From an uncultured bacterium (lineage in GTDB: Bacteria > Patescibacteriota > Minisyncoccia > Phycocordibacterales > GWA1-40-21), in the NCBI GenBank assembly GCA_903823865.1, contig CAIJUJ010000027.1, positions 12,065-76,064 of the forward strand: a DNA stretch of 64,000 nt, in the 5' to 3' direction. The notes under the pieces were generated by a model that was not told the DNA's origin, did not search any database, and saw only the letters and a program-made list of their open reading frames with translations. A program made the translations under genes and the position numbers. Every line of letters begins with the position of its first letter. Position 1 is the stretch's first letter. This document shows positions 3,662 to 42,013 of the stretch, one piece after another.

Positions 3662-4777
3662 TTATACTTTAAATGCTCTACTAAACTTTGATACGTTCAA
3701 AACAATTCCCATTTCAAGCAAGACCAAAAGCATTGCTGTCCCTCCTTGGCTAAAAAATGCAAGCGGTAAACCTGAAAAGGGTATTATACCAAGAACTGAA
3801 GCCATATTTGTAAACGACTGCAGTACAGTAAGTATAACAATTCCAACTACTAAAAGTCCACCAAAAATATCAGGAGACCTGATTGCGATTCTAAAACCAC
3901 GAAAACAAAAAAATAAGAAAATGACTACAATCGCAACGCAGGCAACAAAACCGCCTTCCTCTGCAAGAACTGCAAAAATTGTATCACTTATGGATTCAGG
4001 CAAGAATTTGTACTTTTGTACACTCTGACCAAGACCTTTCCCGAAAACTTGTCCTGAACCAACAGCGATTAATGATTGTTGAACTTGATAACCAGAAGTC
4101 TGTGAATTGTCTCCTGGGTTTATAAAAGTTTCAATTCTTGACATAACATATGGTCTAGTAAACGCAAGAAATGCAATTATCGCGACCCCAAGTGCACCAA
4201 GAACTAAAACATATCTAAATTTTCCACCAGCTACAAGAAACATTGTGGTGCAAGTAGCAGCAATAATTAGAAATGAGTCAGTGTCTGGTTGGCTTAATAA
4301 AATTAACCCGGAAATCGCAATAAGAATTAAAAGTGGAATAAAACCAAATTTTATTGTAGAAACTTTTTCCTTAACTGAAGACAACCAAGCAGACCAATAT
4401 ATAATAAAACCAATATTTAAAATGGTTACTGGCTGAAAAGAAAAACCAAAAATTGAAATCCATCTTTTTGCAAACGTATTAAGATTTGTTCCTACATGCG
4501 GAACAAAAACTAATAATGTCAAAATAATTGACGCAGCAAAAATTGCTAATGAATATTTTTTGTAAATTTTATAATCAATTTTTGAAAACACAAAACAAGC
4601 CAATAAACCAAAAACTATTCCAAAAAAAAGTTGCTTTAATACGACCGATGTAAATTGGATACTATCTTTTGCCAAAATTCCCATTGACGCCGATATAAAA
4701 ATAATAAAACCAAAAATCAAAAGAGCAATTACAATACCTAGAAAAACTTTATCAATATTTTTTTTAGTTCCTGTCAT
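3662..4777 (-). CDS. ftsW: FtsW/RodA (SEDS family) peptidoglycan glycosyltransferase.
   Basis: Polytopic membrane protein, 371 aa, between mraY and murG as in dcw clusters. Confidence 0.8.
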   Translation of the reverse strand: MTGTKKNIDKVFLGIVIALLIFGFIIFISASMGILAKDSIQFTSVVLKQLFFGIVFGLLACFVFSKIDYKIYKKYSLAIFAASIILTLLVFVPHVGTNLNTFAKRWISIFGFSFQPVTILNIGFIIYWSAWLSSVKEKVSTIKFGFIPLLILIAISGLILLSQPDTDSFLIIAATCTTMFLVAGGKFRYVLVLGALGVAIIAFLAFTRPYVMSRIETFINPGDNSQTSGYQVQQSLIAVGSGQVFGKGLGQSVQKYKFLPESISDTIFAVLAEEGGFVACVAIVVIFLFFCFRGFRIAIRSPDIFGGLLVVGIVILTVLQSFTNMASVLGIIPFSGLPLAFFSQGGTAMLLVLLEMGIVLNVSKFSRAFKV

Positions 4778-5851
4778 CTAAATTTTAATCAAAGCCAAAA
4801 TTACACCAATAATCGCACAAACGATACTGACAACCCAGTATCTCATTGTGACTTTATATGCAGGCCAGCCGATTGCTTCAAAATGATGATGCACAGGTGC
4901 TACAAGAAAAACTTTTTTCCCATGTCTAAATTTCTTTGAAATGACCTGAACAATTACGGATAATGAAGTAATAACCAAAGGTAGAGCAATCACTGGTAAG
5001 ACTGCAATTCCCCTTCCTTCACCCATTGAATCAGTCATAAAGGCAACAATAGCAAGTGTTATTGCAAGTGCCATACTTCCAGTTTCGGACATATAAAATC
5101 TAGCCGGAGAAATATTAAACCACAAAAATGCAAGTATTGAACCAACAACGACTGCACAAAATGCCGCAAGATTAATTTGATTTTGAAAAAAAGCAATACC
5201 AGCATATGCAGAGAAAATCGCCGCAAAAACTCCTCCCGCAAGCCCATCTATCCCATCAATAACTCCTCCAGAATAAATAAATAAAGTTAATAAAACAAAA
5301 ATTGGAATAAATAGTATACCAAAATTAATTCCGCCCAAAAATGGAACACTGATCGTATTTACATCCAATTTAAAGTAAAACCAAAGTGCAATTAAAAAAG
5401 AAATTATACTCACAAAAAATAGTCTTTTTTTAAGTGAAAGCCCACCAGCATAATTTCCCCCAGTTCCTTTTATTTCTAAAATATCATCTACCAAGCCGAC
5501 TAAGGCACCTAAAATAAGTACGCAAAGTGGAATCCAGGTTTGGTCTCTACTTAAAAAATCTAATTTTGTAAATGTTCCATCAAAGATTTTTGCTAATAAC
5601 CAAAATGCAGCGGTAGTAATAAAAGCAGATGCCCAAATAACGATTCCGCCCATTCTTGGTGCGCTAACTTCCCTATCAGCGTGTAAACTATTAAATATTG
5701 GGGTTCCTCCACCGTCAATCGAGACGGTTTTAACCTTTTTCTTCCACATTTTATATTTGTAAAGATATTTTGTAAGAAGCGGAGTACCAAGCATTCCAAT
5801 AATGAAGGCTATAACTGAGGGCAAAATCACTTTGATAAGATTTATTGTCAT
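4778..5851 (-). CDS. mraY: Phospho-N-acetylmuramoyl-pentapeptide transferase.
   Basis: VAPVHHHFEAIGW motif and polytopic topology typical of MraY. Confidence 0.9.
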   Translation of the reverse strand: MTINLIKVILPSVIAFIIGMLGTPLLTKYLYKYKMWKKKVKTVSIDGGGTPIFNSLHADREVSAPRMGGIVIWASAFITTAAFWLLAKIFDGTFTKLDFLSRDQTWIPLCVLILGALVGLVDDILEIKGTGGNYAGGLSLKKRLFFVSIISFLIALWFYFKLDVNTISVPFLGGINFGILFIPIFVLLTLFIYSGGVIDGIDGLAGGVFAAIFSAYAGIAFFQNQINLAAFCAVVVGSILAFLWFNISPARFYMSETGSMALAITLAIVAFMTDSMGEGRGIAVLPVIALPLVITSLSVIVQVISKKFRHGKKVFLVAPVHHHFEAIGWPAYKVTMRYWVVSIVCAIIGVILALIKI

Positions 5852-5917
5852 CTTGATAATTGTTTGATTATTATACCTATTCTAACATTTTTTAAAATAA
5901 TTCGTAGTTGTTAATAA

Positions 5918-6850
5918 TTATTGTTCAGAAAACCTTTGTAGTGTTATCTGTTCCAATTTTATTACATCACTAAATCTACCATCAGTAGTTGAACCCAAAA
6001 CTACAACAATAACTGGGTGCATAAAACCAGCATCAAAAATCACAGCGAGATTGCCACCAGCAAGATTTGTAAAACCAGTTTTTGAAGCAATGAGACCAGA
6101 AATTTGGTTCATCGCTTCATTGGTATTTACAGCACTATGTATAATATTACTTTCTGAAATAAATTCCTCTTCTTTTTTGTTTGTGTCGGAAATTAATGTT
6201 GGATCCTTTTTAAGAATAGACTGGAAAAGCAAAGATATATCGAACGCCGAACTATAAGCACCACTCATATTTGTATCAATATCAAGACCAGTTTCATTTA
6301 TAAAAAACGTATCATTCATTTTTAAATTTGCTGCTTTTTCATTCATTATTTTTACAGTATCTTTATTATTTACTGCTTCATAATAATTTAGAGCTGAAGC
6401 TATAGCGTGCATTCCATCATTTGATGAAGTAATTAATGAAAAATCCAACAAATCTTTTAATTTCCATTTTTCTCCAACGATAAGCCCGGTATCACCTTCC
6501 ATTGCAACATCATTTTTAGTAATTGTAATAATTGTGGTCTCGGGCATAATATCAAAAACAACAAGCCCAGACATAAGTTTTGTGATTGAAGCCAATGGTA
6601 ATTTTTCGTGTTCATCCTTAGCAAAAATTGGTTTTTGGTCAATTACATCATAAACATAATATGATTTTGCTTTGATACTATTTAATACGGCATCGTAGTC
6701 AAACTTTTTTTGTTCAATAGTTTGACCTGAAATCATTTTGATATTTTCACTTTCTTTTTTCGAATAGAAAGTGAAACACAAAACAATCACAGCCACTATT
6801 GCTGAAATTATCAGTAATTTATTTTCTTTTATAAAATTTTTGAAATACAT
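5918..6850 (-). CDS. Serine-type D-Ala-D-Ala carboxypeptidase (S11 / PBP5-like), membrane anchored.
   Basis: SxxK (ASITKLMS), SxN (SSND) and KTG (SKTGFT) motifs in the right order. Confidence 0.75.
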   Translation of the reverse strand: MYFKNFIKENKLLIISAIVAVIVLCFTFYSKKESENIKMISGQTIEQKKFDYDAVLNSIKAKSYYVYDVIDQKPIFAKDEHEKLPLASITKLMSGLVVFDIMPETTIITITKNDVAMEGDTGLIVGEKWKLKDLLDFSLITSSNDGMHAIASALNYYEAVNNKDTVKIMNEKAANLKMNDTFFINETGLDIDTNMSGAYSSAFDISLLFQSILKKDPTLISDTNKKEEEFISESNIIHSAVNTNEAMNQISGLIASKTGFTNLAGGNLAVIFDAGFMHPVIVVVLGSTTDGRFSDVIKLEQITLQRFSEQ

Positions 6851-7473
6851 TATTCTTTTATGGTATCAGCTGGGGTTTCCATCTGGCTTTCTAAATCTGC
6901 GTTTGCTTCATCTTGACTTTCTTTTTGTTCTTCGGCTTGTTGTGAATTTTTATAACTTTCAATTTCATTTCTTGCGTCAGTATAATTTGGCATATCTTCC
7001 ATTTTTGTGATTCCCATGAAACTTAGCATTTCAAAAGTTGGTTTATACAAGAATACTCTTTGATCTTTTGGATTTGGAACTTTTTCAATCAAACCACGAA
7101 TCATCAAATTTCTAATAATAAAACTTGATTGAACTCCTCTTATATAATCTATTTCCGAACGTGATATTGGCCCTTGATAAATAATAATTGAAAGTGTTTC
7201 AAGCCCAGCTCTACCCAAATCTCGAACAAGTTCCTCCTTTGTGAGTTTTTCAATAAGTTCTGAAGTGTCTTTTGATGTTCCAAGTGTGACTTCGTCATCT
7301 TTGAATATCAATACGATTCCTCTATTCGTGAGATTCGTTTCAAGATTTTTTAATGAAGCTAAAATTTCTTCTTCGGTCTTTTCAAAAATTTGTCCGAGTT
7401 TTTTTATAGAAACCGGCTCACCTTTCCAGAAAAGTACGGACTCTATTTGTTTTTCTAAGTTATTTTCTTGCAT
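6850..7473 (-). CDS. scpB: Segregation and condensation protein B.
   Basis: Winged-helix ScpB pattern (ETLSIIIYQGPISRSEIDYIRGV) and acidic C-terminal tail. Confidence 0.8.
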   Translation of the reverse strand: MQENNLEKQIESVLFWKGEPVSIKKLGQIFEKTEEEILASLKNLETNLTNRGIVLIFKDDEVTLGTSKDTSELIEKLTKEELVRDLGRAGLETLSIIIYQGPISRSEIDYIRGVQSSFIIRNLMIRGLIEKVPNPKDQRVFLYKPTFEMLSFMGITKMEDMPNYTDARNEIESYKNSQQAEEQKESQDEANADLESQMETPADTIKE

Positions 7474-7485
7474 GATAGTTTTTTA

Positions 7486-7968
7486 TTATAATATATTTCT
7501 TTCCATCTTTTTACTTACTTCCTTAAAACCCATACTTGTCCAAACAGCCACTCCTAATTTATTTTTAGTATTTACCGAAAGTTCAATTTTTTTAATTTTC
7601 TTTTTCTTAAGAATACCGGCCATGTAATTAAAAATCATTTTGCCTAATCCCAACCCTCTATATTTCTTTTGAATATACATTGTCTCTAAATAAGCAATTT
7701 TATCTAAAATAAATATTGGTGTTAATTTGCGAATATTAAAAGAAAAATAACCAATTGGTTTTTCATTTTTCTCAACAATGTAATAATATGTATTTGGTTT
7801 TTTTATATCCCTAGATATAAACTTTTTATATATTAATTCAACTGTAACACCTTTTTTATATCTATTATCAAAATTACGATGATAATCTAAAATTTCTTGA
7901 TCACTTTTAACAAGAAAAGGAATATCTTTTTTTGTCGCTCTATAAATATTTATTTTATCTTTTAACAT
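7486..7968 (-). CDS. GNAT family N-acetyltransferase.
   Basis: Motif A-like QKKYRGLGLGKMIF. Confidence 0.6.
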   Translation of the reverse strand: MLKDKINIYRATKKDIPFLVKSDQEILDYHRNFDNRYKKGVTVELIYKKFISRDIKKPNTYYYIVEKNEKPIGYFSFNIRKLTPIFILDKIAYLETMYIQKKYRGLGLGKMIFNYMAGILKKKKIKKIELSVNTKNKLGVAVWTSMGFKEVSKKMERNIL

Positions 7969-29909: not shown

Positions 29910-31007
29910 TTAAATTTTGAATTCAATAACATCTCCGTCTTTTACAATGTATTCTTTTCCTTCTGTGCGAACTAGCCCTTTTTCACGAGCAACTCCATAT
30001 GAACCAGAAACAAGAAGTTTGTCCCATTCTATAACTTCAGCACGAACAAATTTGTCTTTAAAATCACCGTGAATTGCAGTGCCTGCCATTGGAGCATTCC
30101 ATCCTTTCTTAATTGTCCAAGCGCGAGTTTCGTCTTCTCCTGTAGTAAAATAAGTAATAAGTCCAAGCAAATCATATCCAGCTTTTATTAAATCATTTAT
30201 TCCATCATCCTTCACGCCAAGTCCTTCTCTCATTTCTTTTTTGTCTGCACCTTCCAAATCTTTCAGCTCTTGTTCAATTGCAGCATCAACAATTACATAT
30301 TTTGCTTTTACTTCATTAAAAAATTTAATAAGTTTTTGATATCGCTCGTCATTTAATTCATCAAGATTTTTTCCACCGGCTTTTTTATTTAATATATAAA
30401 GTATCGGCTTCATTGTTATAAGACAAAGTTTGCTGACTTCAACAATTTCTTTGTCATCAAAACTAACCGTGCTTGCGAGCTTCCCAGCTTCCATTGCAAT
30501 TTTTAATTTTTCTATTGCACCATTTTCAATTATTGCTGACTTACTTCCTTTTTTTATTTCACTTCCTAAAGCACTTGCTCTTTTTGTGATTGTTTGTAAG
30601 TCCGCTAAAATAAGTTCAAGATTTATTGTTTCAATATCTGAAAGCGGGTCTATTTTATTTGCAACGTGAATAATATTATCATCTTCAAAAATTCGGACAA
30701 CTTCAGCAATGGCATCAGTCTCACGAATGTTTGTTAGAAATTTATTTCCCAATCCTTCTCCAGCAGAAGCACCTTTTACAAGACCTGCAATATCAACAAA
30801 TTCCACCGCCGCTGGCATGGTCTTTATTGACTTAGAAAAGGTTGATAGCTTAGCTATTCTCTCGTCTGGCACAGCTACAACCCCTACAGAAGGGTCTATA
30901 GTGCAAAAGGGATAGTTCTCACAAGCTACAGCTTTGCGAGTTAAGGCGTTAAATAACGTCGATTTACCAACGTTTGGTAGTCCAACGATTCCGATTGATA
31001 GTGACAT
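29910..31007 (-). CDS. ychF: Ribosome-binding ATPase YchF (Obg family).
   Basis: [20 protein letters not shown]1 motif, TGS C-terminal domain, 365 aa. Confidence 0.9.
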
Positions 31008-31052
31008 ATTTCAGTACTTTAACAGATTTTAGGGGAAAGATAAAGGAAAAAT

Positions 31053-31084
31053 AAAAGCTGGGCGGCCGAAGTCCGCCCAGCTTT
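31053..31084 (-). terminator. Terminator after the 1219-aa gene.
   Basis: agctgggcgg-ccgaagt-ccgcccagct. Confidence 0.65.
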
Positions 31085-31090
31085 ACTTAT

Positions 31091-34000
31091 TTATGATATC
31101 TTTTTCTTCAATATTTTTGAAACGTCACCCCTGTATTTCTTTAATCCATTAATTAGATTCTTTGCGTCAATAATTTTTATCTGTCTTGGACCAACAATTT
31201 CATATTTATTTATACCCAACCAGCCAAGAGCACTCTGGAATACTTGTTGGTGCCTATATGATTTATTTGAGGACCTAGAATAAAAATCTAAAACTAATTT
31301 ATCAGCACCGCTTACCCATGTCATAGCTTTTAATGTTCTATTAATTATAATCTCTATATCGGCAACGAGTTTTTTTACTACCTCTGGATCATCATAATCA
31401 ATTTCCTTATTATTTTCTGCAAAATTTGTTGTTCTGAGCTCATCTAAAGGGCCAAATTTATCCCACTGCTCCACTGGTGAAAGAGACCGTTTTATTGCTT
31501 CTTCTGCGCGGCGAGCAGATGTAATTAGCCTAGAAACTACCGCTCCAGCAAAACCAATTGAACGTTTATCTTTAGCACCCCGTCTCGCCGCCTTAATTGC
31601 CCTGCCTAAGTCAACATCTTCGCCCACTCCAATTTTTGAATAGCCATTTAGGGCCGCATAAATACTAGATTGAAAAGCAAAATTTGCACCAGATGACGCA
31701 ATTGTACTTTCGTCCCCACGTCTTAATATAACATCTACATATTGAAAGAATCTGGTACCAATGTGCACTAACGGATTTCTAGCATATGCCTCCAAACCCC
31801 AGTCTAGTTGACCCATATATGCATCAGTGTCAGGATTTTTTTCAAACTTTCTAATAAAATTGTCTATATATTCTGTCGCTATGCCTTCATTGTCAGCATC
31901 ATTACTTACTATTGCAAGTTTTGGAGCATCTTTTCCACGTAAAATATGTCTCTCTAAAACCGCGTCTGTGAGATACTTTCTCATAGTGCCAATTTTAACA
32001 TCTTTAATTGGAAATACTTTGTTCATAACTCTAATGTGTAGTTCTGGATGATCTTTTTTGAACCTTTGAATTTCTTTTGCGGTGTCATCTGGTAATACTT
32101 TTTTGCCGTTATAATCTGTATCCGGTTGGTTTACAAACAAAACGATTTCAAATTCATCTTTCTTAGCGGTCTGATTTAAATAATTTTCAAGAGTCTTATA
32201 TATATTTTTACCCTCCTGGTGGCCGGCAACGGGAACACATACTGAGAGTCTACATTTTGAATCCATTGGACCAGCTTCTTTTGTTAGCTCATCGATTATT
32301 TTTAAATCTTCAGGAGTTTGTCTAGACAAATAATCTTTAATTTCTTCCTTTTCATTAAGTTCGGCGTCTGGATTTTCCTTTAAAGCTTCGGACATGCGAC
32401 CTAAATAATTCTCCCTGTTAGCATCATTAAATCCATGATAGGGATAATCTAATTCCTCATGAGTTATTGGATTTCTCAATTGTTCTAGAGGTCCTCTGCC
32501 AAAGATAGGAATAGACAATGGAAAATCTACAATAGGAGCCACACTTTCTATTGATTGATTACCAAGTTCGGTGGCGATGATATTTACCACACTATTTCCA
32601 TCGGAAGCAGTACCAATATCTTGAGCAACCTCCATAAACTTTCCAGTAAATTGAAGTTGTCCATCTACAACTCTAAAAAGAGTTTTTCCAATAAAACTAT
32701 TTGGGTCAATTAGAACATGTCCATCGGTACCAATTGGTAATTCAGCCACACTATGCTGTGTACCAGCAGAAAGTGAAAAAAGCATTTTGAGATGACCGCC
32801 CACCATTAGGTCTTTTACTTTTGCAATTGCTCCGGCGTGAAATGAACCACTATTTGTCATATGTGATATATCGATATCATAAGAGTGACCGTTATCCATT
32901 AGGCCAGTATTATTAATTCCACCATACTGAATACCAAGTTCGTTAAGGTCGTGGACTTGAGTATTATTGTCATAAAACATTTCTCTGTGAATAGTGTGAA
33001 ATTCTGAAGAATTATTTGGAATTATTTGATGAGCAACTTCTTCAGTATGCTCCCCGATTATTTGTGTTCCAGCTGCAACGTGCTCATGCAAATTATTTGG
33101 ACCAAGATGATTTCCAAACCATTGTCTTATTCCCTCAAGTGCTGTCACGTGGCCTGCCCCCTTATTTATTCCAATAGCATGTTCGATCAAACCCTGTTGG
33201 TTTGCATTAAAGAATGACGATACTTCTTGAAATAAACCACCAATAACAAGTCCTGTCGTTACACCTTTCGTAACCGCACCTGCTATTTTTTTTATTTTTA
33301 ATTTTTTAAATATACGGTCCTTGTCATCTATACCACCGTCCCCGTCATACAAATTTCTATTCTGCAAATTCATTACTGATGCATATAATTCATCAAAAGT
33401 TTGATTGCCCGGTAAAGTCATGACTCCACTCTCAACTATATTCCTTAATTTTACTTTTGCCTCAGCACGAATAACATCAAGGTTAAGGCGTTCTTGTTCA
33501 ACTGATTTATAATCTGAGTATGAAATAAGATCAATTTTTTCTTTGTCTGATAATTGTATTCGTGACTCAGCTTCAGAAAGAGCGTCTACTGCAGCAAAAT
33601 AATCTTCTGGAGACTCTATTTTGCTTGATAATTGTTTAATAGAATCACATAATGATTTTGATGAAACTGTTTTATATATTGCACCTTCTAATTCAACTCG
33701 ACGCTTCATATCTTGTGTCATCTCCTTACCCTTAGCTCTTTCTCTGGCGTGTTGTTTTCTTTCTTCTGTTATTCTCAAACTTTCTTTTGCACCAGCAACA
33801 GCTCCAGTTAATGCAGCTGAACCAAGACCAAATGTAACTGGGGCTAATACTTTATTAGCTCCAAATCTAGAAAGTTTAGCAACAGCTGAATATGCGAGTG
33901 CAACACCGACGGCTACCGTTGTCTCATTTACAAATCTACCGATTCCTGTGGAATGCATTTTATCAATTATCTTATCTACAGTATTCATCTTTGCTTCGGA

Positions 34001-34750
34001 TCTTACACCGGCTTTCGCTTTACCAACAATAATTTCGACTTCTTGATCTATTTCATCAATATCAGCGTGGTGTTCATATGCCAGTTTTGCCTCCTTTGCA
34101 ATCTGAAATAAGTTATCTGTATAACGAACTGTATTTTTTAGTTCTTTTCCGCTTAAACCAAGTGTGATAGAAAGAATTTTATTTCTTTCATCACTAAAAA
34201 TTTTATCATCAATTTTACCTTCAGCATAAGAGCGAATTAGACTACGAACGGAAGAGTTTAATTGTGAGTTCTCTGCTTCGCTTGAATCTAAAATTTCTCT
34301 TTCTTCACCAGCTTCAGTGTGTATAGTTTCGTCGTACTCAGAAATAAACCTGTCTACAATTGCCCCCATCGCTTGATCATGTGCTGTTTTATCTGTGTTA
34401 TTTTCTCCTATATAAATATTTCCTGAATTTTTTATTTCGTCTTTGGCTTTATAGTATTCCTTTTGTCTATACATCTCACGGGCAATATTACCCTTCCAAA
34501 TATTATTTTTGGTATATTCCCATACAGCAGATGCTTTCTCAGACATTTTTAAATGAGAAAAATCTTTAAATTTCTCACTAAGTTTTTTATTCGTTTCTGT
34601 TTTAGATGTTGTTAATCTTTCCTCAGCAATATCACGTGCTTGAGACTCAACAATGTCACCACTGTCAACAATAACAATTTTTCTCTTTTTTGTTTTTTTA
34701 ACTTCCTGTTCCTTTATCGGTCCTGAGTTATTTAATGATTCTGATGTCAT
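31091..34750 (-). CDS. Giant (1219-aa) multidomain protein: charged/coiled N-terminal region, central hydrophobic segments, C-terminal GT-A-fold (family-2-like) glycosyltransferase-like domain.
   Basis: C-terminal LSVCVPVAGHQEG (GT2-like first strand) and LAIVSNDADNEG (DxD). Central Gly/Ala-rich hydrophobic stretch (VAVGVALAYSAVA...VTFGLGSAALTGAVAGA). No other assignable domains. Confidence 0.55.
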   Translation of the reverse strand: MTSESLNNSGPIKEQEVKKTKKRKIVIVDSGDIVESQARDIAEERLTTSKTETNKKLSEKFKDFSHLKMSEKASAVWEYTKNNIWKGNIAREMYRQKEYYKAKDEIKNSGNIYIGENNTDKTAHDQAMGAIVDRFISEYDETIHTEAGEEREILDSSEAENSQLNSSVRSLIRSYAEGKIDDKIFSDERNKILSITLGLSGKELKNTVRYTDNLFQIAKEAKLAYEHHADIDEIDQEVEIIVGKAKAGVRSEAKMNTVDKIIDKMHSTGIGRFVNETTVAVGVALAYSAVAKLSRFGANKVLAPVTFGLGSAALTGAVAGAKESLRITEERKQHARERAKGKEMTQDMKRRVELEGAIYKTVSSKSLCDSIKQLSSKIESPEDYFAAVDALSEAESRIQLSDKEKIDLISYSDYKSVEQERLNLDVIRAEAKVKLRNIVESGVMTLPGNQTFDELYASVMNLQNRNLYDGDGGIDDKDRIFKKLKIKKIAGAVTKGVTTGLVIGGLFQEVSSFFNANQQGLIEHAIGINKGAGHVTALEGIRQWFGNHLGPNNLHEHVAAGTQIIGEHTEEVAHQIIPNNSSEFHTIHREMFYDNNTQVHDLNELGIQYGGINNTGLMDNGHSYDIDISHMTNSGSFHAGAIAKVKDLMVGGHLKMLFSLSAGTQHSVAELPIGTDGHVLIDPNSFIGKTLFRVVDGQLQFTGKFMEVAQDIGTASDGNSVVNIIATELGNQSIESVAPIVDFPLSIPIFGRGPLEQLRNPITHEELDYPYHGFNDANRENYLGRMSEALKENPDAELNEKEEIKDYLSRQTPEDLKIIDELTKEAGPMDSKCRLSVCVPVAGHQEGKNIYKTLENYLNQTAKKDEFEIVLFVNQPDTDYNGKKVLPDDTAKEIQRFKKDHPELHIRVMNKVFPIKDVKIGTMRKYLTDAVLERHILRGKDAPKLAIVSNDADNEGIATEYIDNFIRKFEKNPDTDAYMGQLDWGLEAYARNPLVHIGTRFFQYVDVILRRGDESTIASSGANFAFQSSIYAALNGYSKIGVGEDVDLGRAIKAARRGAKDKRSIGFAGAVVSRLITSARRAEEAIKRSLSPVEQWDKFGPLDELRTTNFAENNKEIDYDDPEVVKKLVADIEIIINRTLKAMTWVSGADKLVLDFYSRSSNKSYRHQQVFQSALGWLGINKYEIVGPRQIKIIDAKNLINGLKKYRGDVSKILKKKIS

Positions 34751-34766
34751 GGTATTTTGGGGATGA

Positions 34767-35072
34767 TTAATTTAACACATTTGCTAAATATATCTCTCGT
34801 AATCTCAATAGAGCACCAGCGACAACTTCATCTAAATTCTTTATATGTTTACTACAAAATTCTTGAATTTCACTATCATTTCCCTTATCGATTTTTTTCT
34901 CGAAATCAGCAAGCTTGTCTTTTGGCATATTGTTTACCATCTCAGCTATAATAATGTTTTCAGCTCTTTCTACAAGATCGTGCCTTAACTGGTCCATTAA
35001 CTCTTTGGACAAACCAGTAATACCTTTGTCTTTTATGAGCTGAGCTGCAAAATCATCGATATTGTATTTCAT
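34767..35072 (-). CDS. Hypothetical 101-aa protein 16 nt upstream of the giant gene, probably co-transcribed.
   Basis: ORF only, helical and charged. Confidence 0.4.
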   Translation of the reverse strand: MKYNIDDFAAQLIKDKGITGLSKELMDQLRHDLVERAENIIIAEMVNNMPKDKLADFEKKIDKGNDSEIQEFCSKHIKNLDEVVAGALLRLREIYLANVLN

Positions 35073-35231
35073 ATAAATATATAATTAATAAATGATAATG
35101 ATTAAATTATATAGTGCTCACCAAATATTGTAAAGTAAAAATATTATTTATACGTGATGAAATATGGCTTAAATTGGGCATAATTATAGAAAAGGGTGGT
35201 TGAAAATTGACTCCTTATATTTGTCATTAGT

Positions 35232-37016
35232 TTAAATAAACCCACTTACCTGTAAATCCCAAAGATTCTTGTACAGGCCACTTTCTTTATTTGCTAATTC
35301 ATCATGTGTTCCATCTTCAACAATCAATCCTTTTTCCATAGAAATTATTCTATCCATTTTTCTTATTGTCGAAAGTCTGTGAGCAATTACAATTGTTGTA
35401 GAATTTTCCATCAAATGTTTCAAGGCATCTTGTATTAGTGATTCAGAATATGAATCTAAACTAGATGTCGCCTCATCAAAAATAAGTATTGGTGCTTTTT
35501 TCAATATTGCTCTTGCGATTGCAACTCTCTGTCTTTCACCACCAGAAAGTTTAATTCCCCTTTCTCCAACATATGTGTCATATTTTAGTGGCAAACTTTC
35601 TATAAACTCATCACAGTGAGCAAGCTTTGCAGCCTTTTTGACTTCTTCATCAGTTGCCTTTCTATTACCATAACGAATATTTTCAAGAAGTGTTCTATGA
35701 AATAGAACTGGGTCTTGTGGAACAAAACTAATATGCTCACGTAGACTATCTTGCGTCACAGCGCTTATATCTTGACCGTCAATACAAATTGAACCCGCTG
35801 TTAAATTATATAGTCTCATTATAAGTCTTACTAAAGTTGTTTTTCCTGCACCAGAGTGTCCAACGATTGCAACTTTCTCTCTTGGTTTTATTACAAGATC
35901 TAAGTTATCAAGGATATTTGTATCTTTGTTAAATTTAAATGTCACACCCCTGAATTCTATTTCACCTTTTTTAATAATAAGCTTTTTTGCATTTGGTATA
36001 TCTTCTATCTCATATCTGGTAAGTAAAATATCTACCATCTCTTTAGAATCTGCGATACTTTGATAGAAATTACGAATAGTTTTATTTAATCCCCAAAGTT
36101 GTTGCGACAAACCAATAATATATGTTTGGCCAAGTACAAATGTACCAATACTTATCAAACCAACTTTCCAATACTTAATAGCAAAATAAAATACCAAAAA
36201 CTCAACTATGGTAATAAGAAAAACCTGCACAACATCAGAAATATTTCCTAACTGCCAAGAAAATAAATATTTTTTTGCCTGATCATTTGAGACATCTTTG
36301 AAGCCTTTTGATTCATAATTATGGCCAGTAAAAAATGTTACGGCATTGTTATTTGTAATAGAATCTGATAAATAACCAGTGGTTAAAGAATCAGCAGCCG
36401 CAACCAACTTATCATATTTAATTTTCCAAGTAGAAAATATTATACTAAATATTACATAGATAATAACCCATATTAATAGAATGATTGCAAATACTGGTGC
36501 AATAAACCAAGTCACGATAATTGAACCAAAAACAGTAACAACAAGAGGCATAAAATTATATACCAAGCCATCACTTATGTTTTCAAAGGCACGGCTAAAG
36601 CGCCCAACTTTTTGAACAAGACTACCAGAAAAATTATTTGTAAAAAATGAGTGTGAATGTTTTATTAAATAATCAAACGAAATTTGCTTTAGACGCGCCA
36701 TGACCTTTGAAACCGTTGGTAGATAGAAGTAATTTGCTACTTGCCAACAAGCTTGGTCAGCAAAATTCAAAATTAAAATTAAAATTATAATATGGATTAA
36801 TTTTGGTGCTGTGATATTTACATCATTAGATTTACCTATAACATCGAAGAAATTCTTGTAAAATAGTGGGACAATAACCATAATTATTCTCGAAACAAAG
36901 AAAAAAAACACACCAGAAAAAAGCGATGGTTTTAAATTTCCTATTCCATACCAAAATTGAACAAGTATTTCTCTAATCGTAGTTTCACTTATTTTTTTGT
37001 TATTATTGTTTGTCAT
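35232..37016 (-). CDS. ABC exporter, fused TMD-NBD (MsbA/ABCB-like).
   Basis: Six-TM N-terminal half. Walker A GHSGAGKTT, signature [14 protein letters not shown], Walker B ILIFDEATSSLD. Confidence 0.85.
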   Translation of the reverse strand: MTNNNNKKISETTIREILVQFWYGIGNLKPSLFSGVFFFFVSRIIMVIVPLFYKNFFDVIGKSNDVNITAPKLIHIIILILILNFADQACWQVANYFYLPTVSKVMARLKQISFDYLIKHSHSFFTNNFSGSLVQKVGRFSRAFENISDGLVYNFMPLVVTVFGSIIVTWFIAPVFAIILLIWVIIYVIFSIIFSTWKIKYDKLVAAADSLTTGYLSDSITNNNAVTFFTGHNYESKGFKDVSNDQAKKYLFSWQLGNISDVVQVFLITIVEFLVFYFAIKYWKVGLISIGTFVLGQTYIIGLSQQLWGLNKTIRNFYQSIADSKEMVDILLTRYEIEDIPNAKKLIIKKGEIEFRGVTFKFNKDTNILDNLDLVIKPREKVAIVGHSGAGKTTLVRLIMRLYNLTAGSICIDGQDISAVTQDSLREHISFVPQDPVLFHRTLLENIRYGNRKATDEEVKKAAKLAHCDEFIESLPLKYDTYVGERGIKLSGGERQRVAIARAILKKAPILIFDEATSSLDSYSESLIQDALKHLMENSTTIVIAHRLSTIRKMDRIISMEKGLIVEDGTHDELANKESGLYKNLWDLQVSGFI

Positions 37017-37086
37017 TTGCCGTAAAATATCAGACGACCATGATTGGCCGTCTAATTTATTAAGAAACTTTTATTATGGTTATGAT

Positions 37087-37314
37087 TTACATCATGAGTT
37101 TTCTTAACTCATCCTGATGTTTTCGCATCACTTCCATCGAGGCTGCGGTCTTGCTTTTTCCTTCTTTTACTTTCTGTTCAATTTCTTTTGCAATATTCTC
37201 AAAAAATTGTGGGTCCTTTTCTATAGCTCCCATCATCATGTCTTGCTGTTCTTTTGGAACACCTTTCATTTGAGATTTTATTGCATGCTTCATTAAAAAT
37301 GTTTTTAGTCCCAT
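37087..37314 (-). CDS. Hypothetical 75-aa helical protein with terminator-like hairpins on both sides.
   Basis: ORF only. Hairpins at about 37030-37060 and 37340-37380. Confidence 0.35.
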   Translation of the reverse strand: MGLKTFLMKHAIKSQMKGVPKEQQDMMMGAIEKDPQFFENIAKEIEQKVKEGKSKTAASMEVMRKHQDELRKLMM

Positions 37315-37427
37315 GTTTATTTTTGATTATTTTATAACTATATATTTATATCATAAATGGTGGATTTTTGCGAAGCAAAAATCCACCATTTATTTTTCTT
37401 TATAACTTTAAATTTTATAGATAAATA

Positions 37428-38660
37428 TCACTCATACCGAAGCGCCTCCATTGGACTCTTTTTTGAAGCTTGATTTGCTGGATAAATACCAAAAACTAAA
37501 CCAACGAGTCCAGCCACCACAACACCGAGAATTGCGGCACTCCATGGAAATACAAAACTCCAATCAAGTTTAATTACTGATGTTAAAATAATAGATATGA
37601 CATACGATAAAGATGCTCCCAAAATAATCCCTATAATGCCACCAGAAGCTGTAAGTATAACCGCTTCGAGTAAAAATTGGGTTAAAATATCTTTACCTGT
37701 TGCACCGATTGCTTTTCTCAAACCAATTTCTCTCGTTCTTTCGGTTACGGAAACCAACATAATATTCATGATTCCAATTCCACCAACGACAAGAGATATG
37801 GCGGCAACTGCCGCTAAAAATGCAGTGAGTGCATCAGTGATTGTGGATAAAGTCGCCGCAACATCAGCTGAGGTTGTGACAGAAAAATCATCTTTTGCTG
37901 GATCAGTAATATTGTGAGAATTTCGCAAAGTTATAGTCACATCTTGAACTGTGGATTTTAGATTTGCTTCAGTATCAGTTTCAACAACAATTCTACTGTA
38001 ATATTTCGTACCAGTAATATACTGTTGTACTGTGGTATATGGCATAAAAACAGAATCATCAAAACTTGAAGAAGAACCCTTTTCAGGTAAAACACCAATA
38101 ACCTTAAATGTATTATTTTTAATTCTAATTTTTTGACCTACAGCATCGTCACCATCAAAAAGGTGTTGTTTAACTTTGTAACCTATAACAACAACTGATG
38201 ACAAACTCTGTACGTCTTGATCTGAGAAAAAAGTTCCTCTATCGGGATTTAAACTAAAAATTTCTGGAACAAGCTCACCAGAACCAAAAACAGATACTTG
38301 GTAAACATTGCTACCATAAACTGCTTTTCCAGCTCCTACCACCATTGGCATGACATATTTTGCATGAGGAACATTTGTTTTATTTTTTATTAAATTTAAA
38401 TCTTTTTCTTTAAGCGAATCATTCATCGTTTGTGAAGCCATTGATGGTCCAAAAGAAATTTTCCCTGGCAAAACAATAACTGTTGTAGCTCCCAAACCTT
38501 TTACTTGTCCTAAAATAAGATTTTGTGCTCCTTGCCCAAGTGACATAACTAAAATAATTGACGTAATACCAATGACAATTCCAACAATAGTCAAAGCTGA
38601 GCGCGATTTGTGCGTTGTAAGTCCTGTCACTGCTGTTTTTATACTGTATCGTAATTTCAT
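37428..38660 (-). CDS. MacB/FtsX-family ABC permease.
   Basis: N-terminal TM, large periplasmic domain, C-terminal FtsX-like three-TM bundle. Confidence 0.8.
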   Translation of the reverse strand: MKLRYSIKTAVTGLTTHKSRSALTIVGIVIGITSIILVMSLGQGAQNLILGQVKGLGATTVIVLPGKISFGPSMASQTMNDSLKEKDLNLIKNKTNVPHAKYVMPMVVGAGKAVYGSNVYQVSVFGSGELVPEIFSLNPDRGTFFSDQDVQSLSSVVVIGYKVKQHLFDGDDAVGQKIRIKNNTFKVIGVLPEKGSSSSFDDSVFMPYTTVQQYITGTKYYSRIVVETDTEANLKSTVQDVTITLRNSHNITDPAKDDFSVTTSADVAATLSTITDALTAFLAAVAAISLVVGGIGIMNIMLVSVTERTREIGLRKAIGATGKDILTQFLLEAVILTASGGIIGIILGASLSYVISIILTSVIKLDWSFVFPWSAAILGVVVAGLVGLVFGIYPANQASKKSPMEALRYE

Positions 38661-38662
38661 TT

Positions 38663-39424
38663 TTATTTTATAAATTTATCTGAAACTGTTTTTCTATTTG
38701 TAACTTGTTCATCACTTGCAATTTGACCATCAAGTAGACGAATAATTCTTTGTGCATATTCCGCTGTGTATGTTTCGTGAGTAATGAGAATAATTGTGTG
38801 GCCTTTTTCAGTATTTAATTTTTGAATAATTTCAATAATAGCTTGACCAGATTTTGAATCAAGATTACCAGTTGGTTCATCGGCAAAAATAACTTCAGGT
38901 GAAGTTACAAGCGCACGAGCAATAGCAACTCTTTGCTTTTCTCCACCAGAAAGCTGAACAGCAAGGTGATGCATACGATGTGCGAGACCAACAGAAATAA
39001 CGGCTTCTTCTGCAAGTTTGTTCCACTCTGATTCTGGTTTGTCAGAATAAATTAAAGGTAATTTAACATTCTGTAAAACCGTTTCGTGTGGCAGAAGATT
39101 GAACGCTTGAAAAACAAATCCCATTTTTGAATTTCTAATTTTTGCAATTTCAATTTGGTCATATTCGCCAAGATTTTTTCCAGAAAAATTATAAGTACCT
39201 TCAGTATGATTATCCAGGAGTCCAAGAATTTGTAGTAGGGTTGATTTACCAGAACCAGAAGGTCCCATAATCGCCACAAACTCCCCTTTTTTTATTTCAA
39301 TAGAAACACCACGAAGAGCTTCCGTTTTTGTGCCCTCGCTATCATAAACTTTCCAAATATTTTTTGTTTCTATTAGAGCCACGGGGTTATAAGTTTGGTG
39401 ATGCCAATATTTTATCACCTTCAT
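38663..39424 (-). CDS. ABC transporter ATP-binding protein (MacB/LolD type).
   Basis: [35 protein letters not shown]. Confidence 0.9.
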
Positions 39425-40985
39425 TTAATCCAGAAATAATTTCTACATAACCATCGACACCTCTCATACCAGTTTCTACTTTTGTTTCTGTAATTGTAGC
39501 TAAATCATCTCCGCTAAGTAATTTTACATATTTTAATACATCAACAGAATAAACTGACCTTGATGGAACAGCCAAAACACCATCTTTTTGGCCGGTTAAA
39601 ATATCCAAATTTGCTGTCATCCCAGATTTAATTCTATCGTCTGAAGAAGATACAAATTTTAATGTGACCTTGTATGTTGGCACATTTTCTATAACAGTTT
39701 CTGCTGGGTCAATTTTAATAACAGAAGTTTCAAAAAATGTACCGGAGCCATACGCATCAAGAGTTGTTGTGGCAACGTCTCCAATTTTTATTTTTGCAAT
39801 ATCTGCCTCTGAAACAAAAGATTCAACTTCATATTGTCCATAAGAAATAACGGATAGCGCTGGCATTCCTGCTTGAATAGTCTCGCCAACTTTTGCAACA
39901 ATATTTGTAATGACTCCATTTATTGGTGAATTGATTATTGATTTGTTCAATCTTGCTTCTGCGACATCAACATTTGCTTGCGCTTGCTCGACTGTGGCCT
40001 CTTGTGCTTTTAATTGATCCGCTGTTGCACCAGTTTTAGTTAAAGTAAGTTGGCTGTTTACTATGTTTAAAGCAGAAATTGCTGATTGATATTGATTATA
40101 GGCAATTGATAAATTATTTATAACTAAAGAAATACTTGATCTAACTGTGGAAACATTTGTTTTCCAAAGTGTAATAGTTGTCTGACTTACAGAAGAATAT
40201 GGGTTTAATTTGTTTACAGCTAACGCAAGATTTTGCAGCAACAGTTGTATAGCAGAAAGATTATTATTTGATGTCACAACCACATCATCGATATTTGAAT
40301 TTGTAGTCAAATCTAATGTTAATGTATTCCATGCATTTAAAATGTTTTCAATACTTGCTCTTCCTGTAACAATATCATTTTGTAATTGAAAATCTGTTTG
40401 AAATTGTAAAGAAGGAATTATACTTCGTGGATTTGTAAACAATAAATCAATATAATTTCTAATTGCATCATCAGATTTATTATATGCGTCTTTTACTGAA
40501 TTTATTAAAGTATTTTTTGCATCGGCTAAATCATTTTTTGCTTTATCAACTTGAGATTGATTGGTAGCTATTTGCTCTGGTGTTGCTCCATTTTGTAGAG
40601 ACGATAAGTTTGCTTCGGCAATTTTTAATCCTGCCTTTGCTTGCTCAACCGCCGCCACTAAATCAGCATTTGAAAGTGAGGCTAAATATTGTCCTTGATA
40701 CACTTTATCGCCAACAGAAACATAAACGTGAGAAACTTGGCCACCAGTTTCAAAAGAAAGATCTAAATCTGAAATTGGTTTTACGTTTCCAGTTGAGCTG
40801 ACGACTTCTACTATATTATGTCTCGCAACGGCGATACTATCAGCCACTGTAGATTTTTTACCACTAAAGATAAGTACACATAAAATCAAAACCACTATTA
40901 CAATTACTGCCGTCCACCATTTATTTTTTTTAATAAAATTTAAAATACCAAAAAATATTTTTTTCATATTTAATAATTCTATCAT
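39387..40985 (-). CDS. HlyD/MacA-like periplasmic adaptor (membrane fusion protein).
   Basis: N-terminal TM, long coiled-coil hairpin region, beta-barrel C-terminus. Overlaps the ATPase gene by 38 nt. Confidence 0.75.
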   Translation of the reverse strand: MIELLNMKKIFFGILNFIKKNKWWTAVIVIVVLILCVLIFSGKKSTVADSIAVARHNIVEVVSSTGNVKPISDLDLSFETGGQVSHVYVSVGDKVYQGQYLASLSNADLVAAVEQAKAGLKIAEANLSSLQNGATPEQIATNQSQVDKAKNDLADAKNTLINSVKDAYNKSDDAIRNYIDLLFTNPRSIIPSLQFQTDFQLQNDIVTGRASIENILNAWNTLTLDLTTNSNIDDVVVTSNNNLSAIQLLLQNLALAVNKLNPYSSVSQTTITLWKTNVSTVRSSISLVINNLSIAYNQYQSAISALNIVNSQLTLTKTGATADQLKAQEATVEQAQANVDVAEARLNKSIINSPINGVITNIVAKVGETIQAGMPALSVISYGQYEVESFVSEADIAKIKIGDVATTTLDAYGSGTFFETSVIKIDPAETVIENVPTYKVTLKFVSSSDDRIKSGMTANLDILTGQKDGVLAVPSRSVYSVDVLKYVKLLSGDDLATITETKVETGMRGVDGYVEIISGLNEGDKILASPNL

Positions 40986-41025
40986 ATTTTTACTGAATTT
41001 GAAATAAAAAATTTTAAAATTTTTG

Positions 41026-41096
41026 TGGACTTAGGCAGAATCGAACTGCCGTCTCGTCAATGCGAATGACTCGTACTACCACTGTACTATAAGCCC
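41026..41096 (-). tRNA. tRNA-Ala (anticodon CGC).
   Basis: Manual fold: acceptor GGGCTTA/TAAGTCC with G3:U70, D-arm GTAC/GTAC, anticodon loop TTCGCAT, T-arm GGCAG-TTCGATT-CTGCC. Confidence 0.75.
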
Positions 41097-41120
41097 AAAA
41101 TTATAAAAATGTTTTGAAAT

Positions 41121-41615
41121 CTATACCTCAGCCTTAAGACCAAGATTGTTCTCTAAATAATTAATCGATATCTTCTTTCCTTTAATATTTTTTTCAAACA
41201 TTTCTTTATTTGTAAAATAAACCTTTACACCATTCTCAACCATTGCCTTTAGTGCAGAATCAAAATGTATTTTATTTAATGGTTTTACTTTTTGTTTTGT
41301 TGCCCACTCTCTACTCCATTGCTCGCGGTCGTTTGTAAAATTAGAATCTGGCAATACATAAACAGTACCGCCTTTGTCGAGCTCTCTAAACTTATCTTTA
41401 TCAGAAATCACAAAATAATATATCCCGTCTTCATAACCCTTGCGTGATTCATTATCAAACATTCTTACCAAAAAAAGAGTTGCTCCAGCAATATCCGGAC
41501 TTGCAAATAATAATTCACCCTCTTCTTTTTTTCTATAACTTTTTTGTTTTGGCTCTAGTTCAATAATGTCCTTATTTGCTGAGCCATGATAAAAATTTTC
41601 TGGTTTTTTTTCCAT
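41121..41615 (-). CDS. Hypothetical protein (164 aa).
   Basis: ORF only. Confidence 0.4.
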   Translation of the reverse strand: MEKKPENFYHGSANKDIIELEPKQKSYRKKEEGELLFASPDIAGATLFLVRMFDNESRKGYEDGIYYFVISDKDKFRELDKGGTVYVLPDSNFTNDREQWSREWATKQKVKPLNKIHFDSALKAMVENGVKVYFTNKEMFEKNIKGKKISINYLENNLGLKAEV

Positions 41616-41684
41616 ATAAAAATTATAACACTATATTAAATAGAGGCCAAATATCATCATAAAACCAGATATTTTTTACGTTTG

Positions 41685-41697
41685 TGGACCGCACCGG
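41685..41697 (-). repeat. Displaced copy of the tRNA-Ala(GGC) 3' end (gtggaccgcaccgg), about 115 nt downstream of the intact tRNA.
   Basis: Exact 13-14-nt GC-rich direct repeat of 41814-41826. The intervening segment carries a hairpin (gacaaaagcaaagca...tgctttttcgtc). Confidence 0.55.
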
Positions 41698-41813
41698 ACA
41701 TCTCCACCTACCGTGGCGGGTATCTTTCCATCTCACTTTGTTCGATACGAAAAGATCTTTCAATCCCGGGACAAAAGCAAAGCAGTTTGCTTTTTCGTCC
41801 CACTACTCCGTAG

Positions 41814-41886
41814 TGGACCGCACCGGGATCGAACCGGTCGCCTCATCCATGCCATGGATGCGCTCTACCAAATGAGCTAGCGGCCC
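41814..41886 (-). tRNA. tRNA-Ala (anticodon GGC).
   Basis: Acceptor GGGCCGC/GCGGTCC with G3:U70, anticodon loop ATGGCAT, T-arm ACCGG-TTCGATC-CCGGT. Confidence 0.85.
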
Positions 41887-41933
41887 TTTAAATTTGACCA
41901 AAAAAGTATATTATAAAAGATGTAAAAAATAAA

Positions 41934-42007
41934 GGACGATTAGCTCAGTTGGTTAGAGCATACGATTCACATTCGTAAGGTCACTGGTTCGAATCCAGTA
42001 TCGTCCA
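41934..42007 (+). tRNA. tRNA-Val (anticodon CAC).
   Basis: Acceptor GGACGAT/ATCGTCC, D-arm GCTC-AGTTGGTTA-GAGC, anticodon loop TTCACAT, T-arm ACTGG-TTCGAAT-CCAGT. Confidence 0.85.
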
Positions 42008-42013
42008 CAAAAG

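Follow-up and report, generated by a model that had tools for sequence, protein, structure and literature searches.

A DUF5663 Protein and a Large Modular Protein with a Predicted Glycosyltransferase Head Form a Two-Gene Unit in Patescibacteria

In a 64-kb stretch of DNA from an uncultured member of the Patescibacteria (contig CAIJUJ010000027.1, positions 12,065 to 76,064; hereafter, the window, which has a GC content of about 32%), the gene for a 101-residue protein with a DUF5663 domain and the gene for a 1,219-residue modular protein constitute a functional unit of two genes. An earlier reading of the same sequence (the original prediction) had placed these genes at the end of a row of seven, between positions 31091 and 40985, and had tied a "giant" surface or secreted protein to the exporters encoded beside it. 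We find that the unit consists of two genes, not seven, that the pair has no relation to the ATP-binding cassette (ABC) exporter and MacAB-HlyD trio encoded next to it, and that a protein of 1,219 residues is large rather than giant. The large protein is made up of a body of about 760 residues, which is restricted to Patescibacteria-type genomes, followed by a junction motif and a C-terminal head that, judged from its predicted structure, is a divergent GT2-like GT-A domain of the metal-dependent type with catalytic motifs that look intact. The reading that we prefer, with a probability of roughly 55%, is that of a resident glycosylation platform on the cytoplasmic side of the cell, composed of the DUF5663 protein, the body, and an exchangeable head. 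The ultra-small Patescibacteria (the candidate phyla radiation [CPR]) comprise a substantial part of bacterial diversity; they are episymbionts whose genomes encode many lineage-specific proteins of unknown function.

RESULTS

Pairing of the DUF5663 gene with the large gene

The soluble, helical 101-residue protein (positions 34767 to 35072, minus strand) matches Pfam family PF18908 (DUF5663) with an E value of 1.2e-9, passing the gathering threshold (39.1 bits against a cutoff of 23.7) and covering 82 of the 84 profile positions. The open reading frame (ORF) of the large protein (positions 31091 to 34750, minus strand) begins 16 nt downstream. Gene neighborhoods were taken from six homologues found by protein searches and from 32 loci found in one scan of GTDB species genomes, with ORF and hidden Markov model (HMM) analysis of all loci; together, they represent 34 lineages that are distinct at 90% identity, and since the large gene is cut by a contig end in four of these, 30 lineages are informative. 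In every one of the 30, the DUF5663 gene immediately precedes the large gene in the same orientation (the two are separated by −17 to +37 nt in 29 lineages and by 225 nt in the other), across Paceibacteria and the Kaiser-, Moranii-, Doudna-, Uhr-, and Falkowbacteria. The original suggestion that the 101-residue protein is a partner of the large one is thereby strengthened, the DUF5663 gene being a dedicated partner.

The relationship was also followed in the reverse direction, contig by contig, starting from five divergent DUF5663 proteins. Four of their genes are succeeded, 3 to 10 nt away, by a gene for a protein of 1,355 to 1,489 residues, one of which was confirmed as a body plus a GT-A head. 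The fifth, on the contig of P0224 (P and L denote our protein and locus identifiers), occupies the same syntenic slot, between genes for an M17 peptidase and AhpC, in which the syntenic loci L040 and L041 have a gene for about 1,480 residues, but it is followed by an ORF of only 178 residues. This arrangement, present on 18 contigs, may mean that the large partner was lost or has decayed and that the DUF5663 gene was kept. At L025, a family member whose start lies beyond the contig end is followed after 35 nt by a DUF5663 gene (4363 to 4671) and then (4842 to 7598) by the gene for a 918-residue protein with weak matches to TraG/VirD4-like coupling proteins (E values of 3e-4 to 1.5e-3).

Each of the 32 species genomes contains a single locus, and the genes that flank the pair differ among lineages and are mostly housekeeping genes. 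Some third-party records of metagenome-assembled genomes (MAGs) with the module bear the names Gammaproteobacteria, Bdellovibrionales, or Saccharibacteria (L015, L018, L021, L032, and several "Saccharibacteria" loci), and these labels look unreliable because of the gene content. Within the library searched, no paper mentions DUF5663 or PF18908, and a broader search of the literature was equally fruitless.

Transcription signals around the pair

From its flanking sequences, the pair reads as a transcription unit of its own, extending from a promoter at 35134 to 35106 to a terminator at 31084 to 31054. The promoter-like site (minus strand, TTTACA-17-TATAAT, 11 of 12 positions) is the best match of the region and precedes the DUF5663 start codon by 34 nt, within the 159-nt spacer that follows the ABC exporter gene. 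In L007, a relative that is 77 to 81% identical, both promoter boxes (−35 and −10) are kept together with the 5′ leader, in contrast to the upstream half of the spacer, which is divergent. The intrinsic-terminator hairpin (minus strand) begins 7 nt past the stop codon of the large gene and has a 12-bp stem with 8 GC pairs and a T-rich tail (ΔG of −23.5; z score of −5.1).

The glycosyltransferase-like head

The C-terminal domain had been called GT2-like on account of its first strand (LSVCVPVAGHQEG, residues 835 to 847) and of a DxD motif within SNDADNEG (residues 949 to 956), and both its fold and its conserved motifs bear out this call. We aligned residues 760 to 1219 with 20 homologues (21 members in total) and predicted the structure of this segment, obtaining a mean predicted local distance difference test score (pLDDT) of 83.6 and a predicted template modeling score (pTM) of 0.85. 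The model displays the single, Rossmann-like alpha/beta/alpha fold of GT-A enzymes, and a Foldseek comparison with the Protein Data Bank (PDB) ranks GT2 enzymes first, led by PcManGT (E value of 2.4e-8) and followed by TarS, TarP, RmlT, hyaluronan synthases (HAS), and cellulose synthases. The predicted catalytic domain, residues 831 to 1100 (positions 31451 to 32260, minus strand), includes LSVCVPVA (residues 835 to 842), the DxD motif D951-A-D953, both aspartates of which are kept in at least 90% of the 21 members, and E1044-D1045 in GVGEDVDLG, which is kept in at least 90% of members and is a candidate catalytic base. It is succeeded by a helical extension and a beta hairpin in the AlphaFold2 (AF2) secondary structure (residues 1101 to 1219; positions 31094 to 31450, minus strand) that are kept only among GT-A-headed members.

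The GT-A assignment is made by fold and motifs, not by HMM, because sequence models fail on the window protein; in homologues, GT2 models give weak matches only (PF13632, E value of 0.003; PF02709, E value of 0.0014; and PF13641, also weak). No part of the protein is better conserved than the GT-A block, at 66 to 69% identity compared with 41 to 60% for blocks of the body, which indicates that catalysis is under purifying selection.

The body of the large protein

The 1,219-residue protein has no match in Pfam, NCBIfam, PHROGs, PADLOC, or PDB sequences, nor do profiles of its family match any PDB sequence. A profile search of 1.84 billion representatives recovered 1,339 members (as clusters at 50% identity), 926 of them at an E value of ≤1e-30. 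Based on 41 homologues, the conserved part runs from residue 1 to about residue 760; this body is without a Pfam model or a known fold relative, and its AF2 model has a pLDDT of 75.6. Pfam scans detected no domains in members that are extended at the N terminus.

The original description of a charged N terminus, a Gly/Ala-rich hydrophobic core, and a His-rich middle fits the composition of the body. Residues 1 to 270 (positions 33941 to 34750, minus strand) are a charged alpha/beta and helical N-terminal domain with pLDDT values mostly of 75 to 92, whose fold spans residues 23 to 270 in the AF2 model; there is neither a signal peptide nor an N-terminal hydrophobic run, and the invariant residues of the body include R134, D212, and G243. 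Two Gly/Ala-rich, weakly hydrophobic helices follow at residues 273 to 291 and 301 to 319 (positions 33794 to 33934, minus strand; Kyte-Doolittle hydropathy of 1.35 and 1.62). Residues 320 to 488 (positions 33287 to 33793, minus strand) are predicted by AF2 to form a charged helical bundle with strongly basic flanks (pLDDT of 88 to 95), and a third, Gly-rich hydrophobic helix occupies residues 489 to 507 (positions 33230 to 33286, minus strand), with G500, G504, Q508, and E509 conserved. An acidic, His-rich, beta-rich domain extends over residues 570 to 745 (positions 32516 to 33043, minus strand), and region 521 to 760 contains 16 histidines.

The positions of the hydrophobic helices are kept throughout the family, though the helices are only marginally hydrophobic. 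On a simple-sum, translocon-type scale, the two helices at 273 to 319 have insertion energies of +6.2 and +4.0 and the third of +4.6; on the same scale, true transmembrane (TM) helices of the neighboring transporters score −5.6 to +0.6, the best segment of the soluble protein YchF scores +6.9, and every segment in the family scores above 0. A three-TM topology drawn from Kyte-Doolittle peaks was accordingly not adopted, the segments scoring +4 to +6 against less than +0.6 in true TM helices. The flanks of helix 489 to 507 are asymmetric across the family, with 6.5 Lys plus Arg residues before it and 0.7 after it, where the flank is acidic.

Exchange of heads at a fixed junction

Body and head are joined by a motif at residues 739 to 756 (positions 32483 to 32536, minus strand), which was delimited in an alignment of 41 members and sits in a low-confidence linker. 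Its consensus is PPxFIPxFGRxPLE, with IPxFGRxPLE as the core, and P748, R752, and E756 are invariant in the 41 sequences. In a census of 180 family members, 114 have a GT-A head and at least 16 have a full GT9-type head (PF01075 was matched in 7 of the 11 tested), and J-domain tails occur in three. A 14-member BLAST cluster consists of tails situated behind a GT-A head and includes P0011 and P0016, both with Ser/Thr kinase matches in Pfam. A "GT9-like" class of 50 to 55 members was rejected, since single-linkage BLAST had chained tails that share only about 130 residues.

Closely related bodies can carry different heads. The GT-A-headed P0136 and the GT9-headed P0142 are 92 to 100% identical over most of their first 800 or so residues, bar one variable stretch, and fall to about 15 to 20% identity from the residue after the junction motif; P0142 is known from a contig of 4.75 kb, so that an assembly artifact is possible for this pair alone. 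In three more distant pairs, identity breaks at the same point. Among body pairs that are at least 70% identical, 6 of 27 differ in their heads, and head class follows body relatedness weakly, with nearest neighbors agreeing in 122 of 179 cases compared with 96 ± 8 in shuffles. Gene conversion between paralogues was considered as the source of the swaps and rejected; with one locus per species genome (n = 32), they look instead like cassette exchange.

A constant N-terminal region, an invariant demarcation motif, and a variable C-terminal domain are the layout of polymorphic effectors. One could therefore suppose that the body is a delivery or anchoring module displayed by the episymbiont on contact, that the head acts in the cytoplasm of the host cell, that the junction is a site of processing or exchange, and that the DUF5663 protein is a cytoplasmic chaperone. 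Such an effector would accommodate the collapse of identity directly past the motif and the loose tracking of bodies by heads, as well as the charge pattern around residues 489 to 507, which suggests that the C-terminal part is exported. Translocation domains of toxins are likewise Gly/Ala-rich with marginally hydrophobic helices, and the cytoplasmic cofactors that the heads need would be available to an exported domain only inside another cell.

We nevertheless consider an effector of this kind unlikely. The protein lacks a signal peptide, and no secretion system is linked to the pair in the 30 lineages; one locus, L025, has the weakly matching TraG/VirD4-like neighbor. No immunity-like gene is conserved past the large gene, where most genes are singletons and show no correspondence with head type. 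Conservation is highest in the GT-A head, contrary to what is expected of a domain in an arms race, just two or three head classes dominate, the surroundings are housekeeping genes with one copy of the locus per genome, and PADLOC and PHROGs give no match.

In the window, the terminator downstream of the large gene is followed by ychF. L007 has an extra gene for a 424-residue GT9 protein (PF01075; 13802 to 15150) between the large gene and ychF, and the same position in the window (30998 to 31028) holds only an 83-bp spacer with the terminator. Four lineages have in common a related gene of unknown function immediately after the large gene (L003, 11916 to 12515; L005, 12398 to 13858; L013, 13888 to 14478; and L014, 14183 to 16225), and one of the four has a weak match to a WipA-like phosphatase domain (E value of 0.0015). 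In L002 and L038, the downstream genes include ones of kinase type (Pkinase and APH, respectively).

Neighboring transporters and the 75-residue protein

All seven genes of the original prediction are present as it described them, on the minus strand, and Pfam and NCBIfam searches confirm its transporter calls. Three of them (positions 37428 to 40985) form a MacAB-type tripartite efflux set, comprising a MacB_PCD and FtsX permease (37428 to 38660, minus strand; PF12704, E value of 6e-44; PF02687, E value of 6e-22), a separate ABC ATPase (38663 to 39424, minus strand; PF00005, E value of 1e-32), and a HlyD/resistance-nodulation-division (RND)-type adaptor (39387 to 40985, minus strand; TIGR01730, E value of 2e-40). 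The first 38 nt of the listed ATPase ORF lie within the adaptor gene; its orthologue in the relative encodes 240 residues and starts 5 nt past the adaptor stop codon, and the true start in the window is therefore probably an internal Met. Closer to the pair is a fused, MsbA-like ABC exporter with ABC_membrane and ABC_tran domains (35232 to 37016, minus strand), for which MsbA is the closest NCBIfam model, all scores being far below the equivalog cutoffs. The two terminator-like hairpins that had been noticed at about 37340 to 37380 and 37030 to 37060 are real (37353 to 37393, with a 19-bp stem, a ΔG of −26.1 kcal/mol, and a z score of −8.2; and approximately 37033 to 37056, with a ΔG of −17.1 kcal/mol and a z score of −5.1), and they part the trio, the gene for a 75-residue protein, and the exporter from each other.

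The window is colinear with contig CAIKXY010000004 from an uncultured Patescibacteria-type MAG, at 83 to 87% nucleotide identity. Relative to L007, a segment of about 1 kb (approximately 41012 to 42011 in the window and 2736 to 3740 in L007), which contains a 164-residue ORF (41121 to 41615) upstream of the HlyD gene, is inverted, and the rest is colinear. GC skew is negative across the window (1 to 64000), except for a brief change of sign at about 60 to 62 kb, where there are two plus-strand genes.

According to the original prediction, the large protein would be a surface or secreted protein exported by the MsbA-like exporter, the MacAB-HlyD trio, or both, with the 101-residue protein as its chaperone. 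The window and L007 do have these genes side by side in one orientation, and no terminator was found in the spacer that separates the ABC exporter gene from the DUF5663 gene; however, nearly all long ORFs of the 64-kb window are on the minus strand, so seven same-strand genes in a row are uninformative. Within 10 kb of the pair, a MacB permease and a HlyD adaptor are found only in the window and L007, that is, in one lineage group among the 30 informative lineages, and an MsbA-like orthologue is found in 3 of 30, which is about the level of chance. Homologues of the large protein therefore do not neighbor exporters, an outcome that the prediction had itself named as its refutation. Hairpins separate the trio, the 75-residue gene, and the exporter, and a conserved, near-consensus promoter splits the pair from the exporter. 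The 1,219-residue protein has no GGxGxD (repeats-in-toxin [RTX]) repeat, no LPxTG motif, and no signal-like N-terminal segment, a cryptic C-terminal signal being possible, and all of the alternative heads need cytoplasmic cofactors. Export by these neighbors is thus hardly credible.

A narrower link would be one confined to this lineage, in which the GT-A head would make a lipid-linked glycan and the MsbA/PglK-like exporter would flip it, the adjacency being functional without being ancestral. The exporter scores against PglK- and MsbA-type flippases of lipid-linked glycans and lipids, lies 159 nt upstream with no intervening terminator, and has an orthologue (E value of 1e-212) 5.4 kb upstream of the pair in one Falkowbacteria genome. 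Yet those scores are the ones that fall far short of the equivalog cutoffs, the pair has its own promoter, and the exporter is absent from 27 of the 30 lineages, so the platform works without it; we regard this coupling as very doubtful.

The position of the 75-residue helical protein (37087 to 37314, minus strand) also bears on this point. Its gene is bracketed by hairpins on both sides, as had been proposed, and the protein has no family match in Pfam or NCBIfam. It belongs to a real conserved family with the consensus ...KGVPxEQ...IEKNPxLFQKIAxEIQ..., members of which occur near the DUF5663 pair in three separate lineages (L003, 7460 to 7681; L013, 9427 to 9648; and L009/L011, 8639 to 8866). 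These homologues lie 30 nt upstream of the DUF5663 gene in L003 and L013 and about 0.8 kb upstream in L009 and L011; in the window, the ABC exporter gene separates the two. The adjacency in L003 and L013 suggests that the exporter was perhaps inserted between older neighbors, which argues against lineage-specific coupling. The 75-residue protein is possibly a loose third associate of the pair, outside the core unit.

DISCUSSION

A proposed resident glycosylation platform

In the cytoplasmic platform that we favor, the DUF5663 protein probably binds the body, because its gene is so tightly coupled to the large gene. On the cytoplasmic side, the body would hold the head in place, probably at the inner membrane face by means of its weakly hydrophobic Gly/Ala helices, and the head would take a nucleotide sugar and glycosylate an acceptor bound to the envelope, for which a lipid-linked or teichoic-acid-like glycan and an envelope protein are candidates. 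Exchange of the head (GT-A, GT9, or others) would then alter the modification on the same platform. By analogy, this arrangement is suggested by the closest structures (PcManGT, TarS/TarP, RmlT, and HAS), all of which act at the cytoplasmic face of the membrane. It is also favored by the strict pairing, the pair's own transcription signals, the position of the GT-A block as the most conserved one, the housekeeping context, and the lack of an immunity-like partner. The alternative heads point in the same direction, being mainly a second glycosyltransferase fold (GT9), with added Ser/Thr kinase and J domains, and calling for cytoplasmic cofactors throughout.

Several observations weigh on the other side. 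The location of the head and its acceptor are pure inference; no Pfam GT2 model detects the window protein, which has no Pfam or NCBIfam match at an E value of <0.1; and the helices are too weak for canonical TM segments, which makes even membrane association tentative. The charge pattern around residues 489 to 507 looks like that of an N-in/C-out signal anchor, in which case the beta-rich domain and the head would be extracellular; such export would put domains that depend on nucleotide sugars, ATP, and DnaK outside the cell. Frequent exchange of heads on near-identical bodies also fits a conflict system.

We find it improbable that the module is something categorically different from a modular, membrane-proximal glycosyltransferase. 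One such possibility, a contact-dependent delivery platform used throughout the Patescibacteria, in which the body, aided by the DUF5663 protein, would insert its helices into a membrane and the head would modify targets inside the host, seems to us a long shot. We are similarly skeptical of the corollary that the enzyme is presented or released at the IPxFGRxPLE junction, which would make it a new kind of polymorphic effector that operates without a known secretion machine.

What the module does determines what it means for its carriers. If the heads glycosylate the envelope, the platform would be a compact means of diversifying the surface that faces hosts and phages; action in the host would instead make the module a new effector system. 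In either case, the analysis provides a tractable enzyme domain (residues 760 to 1219) and a hypothesis about its protein partner, and it removes the tempting but mistaken operon reading of an exporter with a giant secreted protein.

Comparison with known systems

The head represents a divergent version of a known enzyme fold, and we found no description in the literature of the body, of its obligate pairing with DUF5663, or of head exchange at a fixed junction. Like the substrates of type I secretion, the large protein is encoded in the window next to genes for an ABC exporter and a HlyD-family adaptor, but it lacks RTX repeats, the adjacency is not conserved, and the transcription signals are separate. 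The constant N terminus, demarcation motif, and cassette-like exchange of the C terminus recall CdiA-CT (with its VENN motif) and Rhs-CT (with PxxxxDPxGL); unlike CdiA and Rhs proteins, the large protein has neither a secretion signal nor a toxin-type domain, it comes without a secretion system or an immunity gene, and its main head is under strong purifying selection.

Nearer to the head itself are the GT2 GT-A enzymes that act at the cytoplasmic face of the membrane, such as PcManGT (PDB accession number 6yv7), TarS (5tze), TarP (6h1j), RmlT (8bz4), and SpsA (1h7l). The window head differs from these in going undetected by GT2 HMMs, in having VNxPD in place of the usual VDDGS after strand 2, and in being fused by an invariant junction motif behind a 760-residue body that is always paired with a DUF5663 gene. 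In Staphylococcus aureus, wall teichoic acid is glycosylated by alternative GT-A (TarS and TarP) or GT-B (TarM) enzymes, which serve the same role and vary among strains. The likeness lies in the use of alternative glycosyltransferase folds in one role, and TarS and TarP are among the best structural matches to the window head; the S. aureus enzymes, however, are encoded by separate genes, one of them borne on a prophage, whereas here the heads are swapped on one scaffold at a fixed junction.

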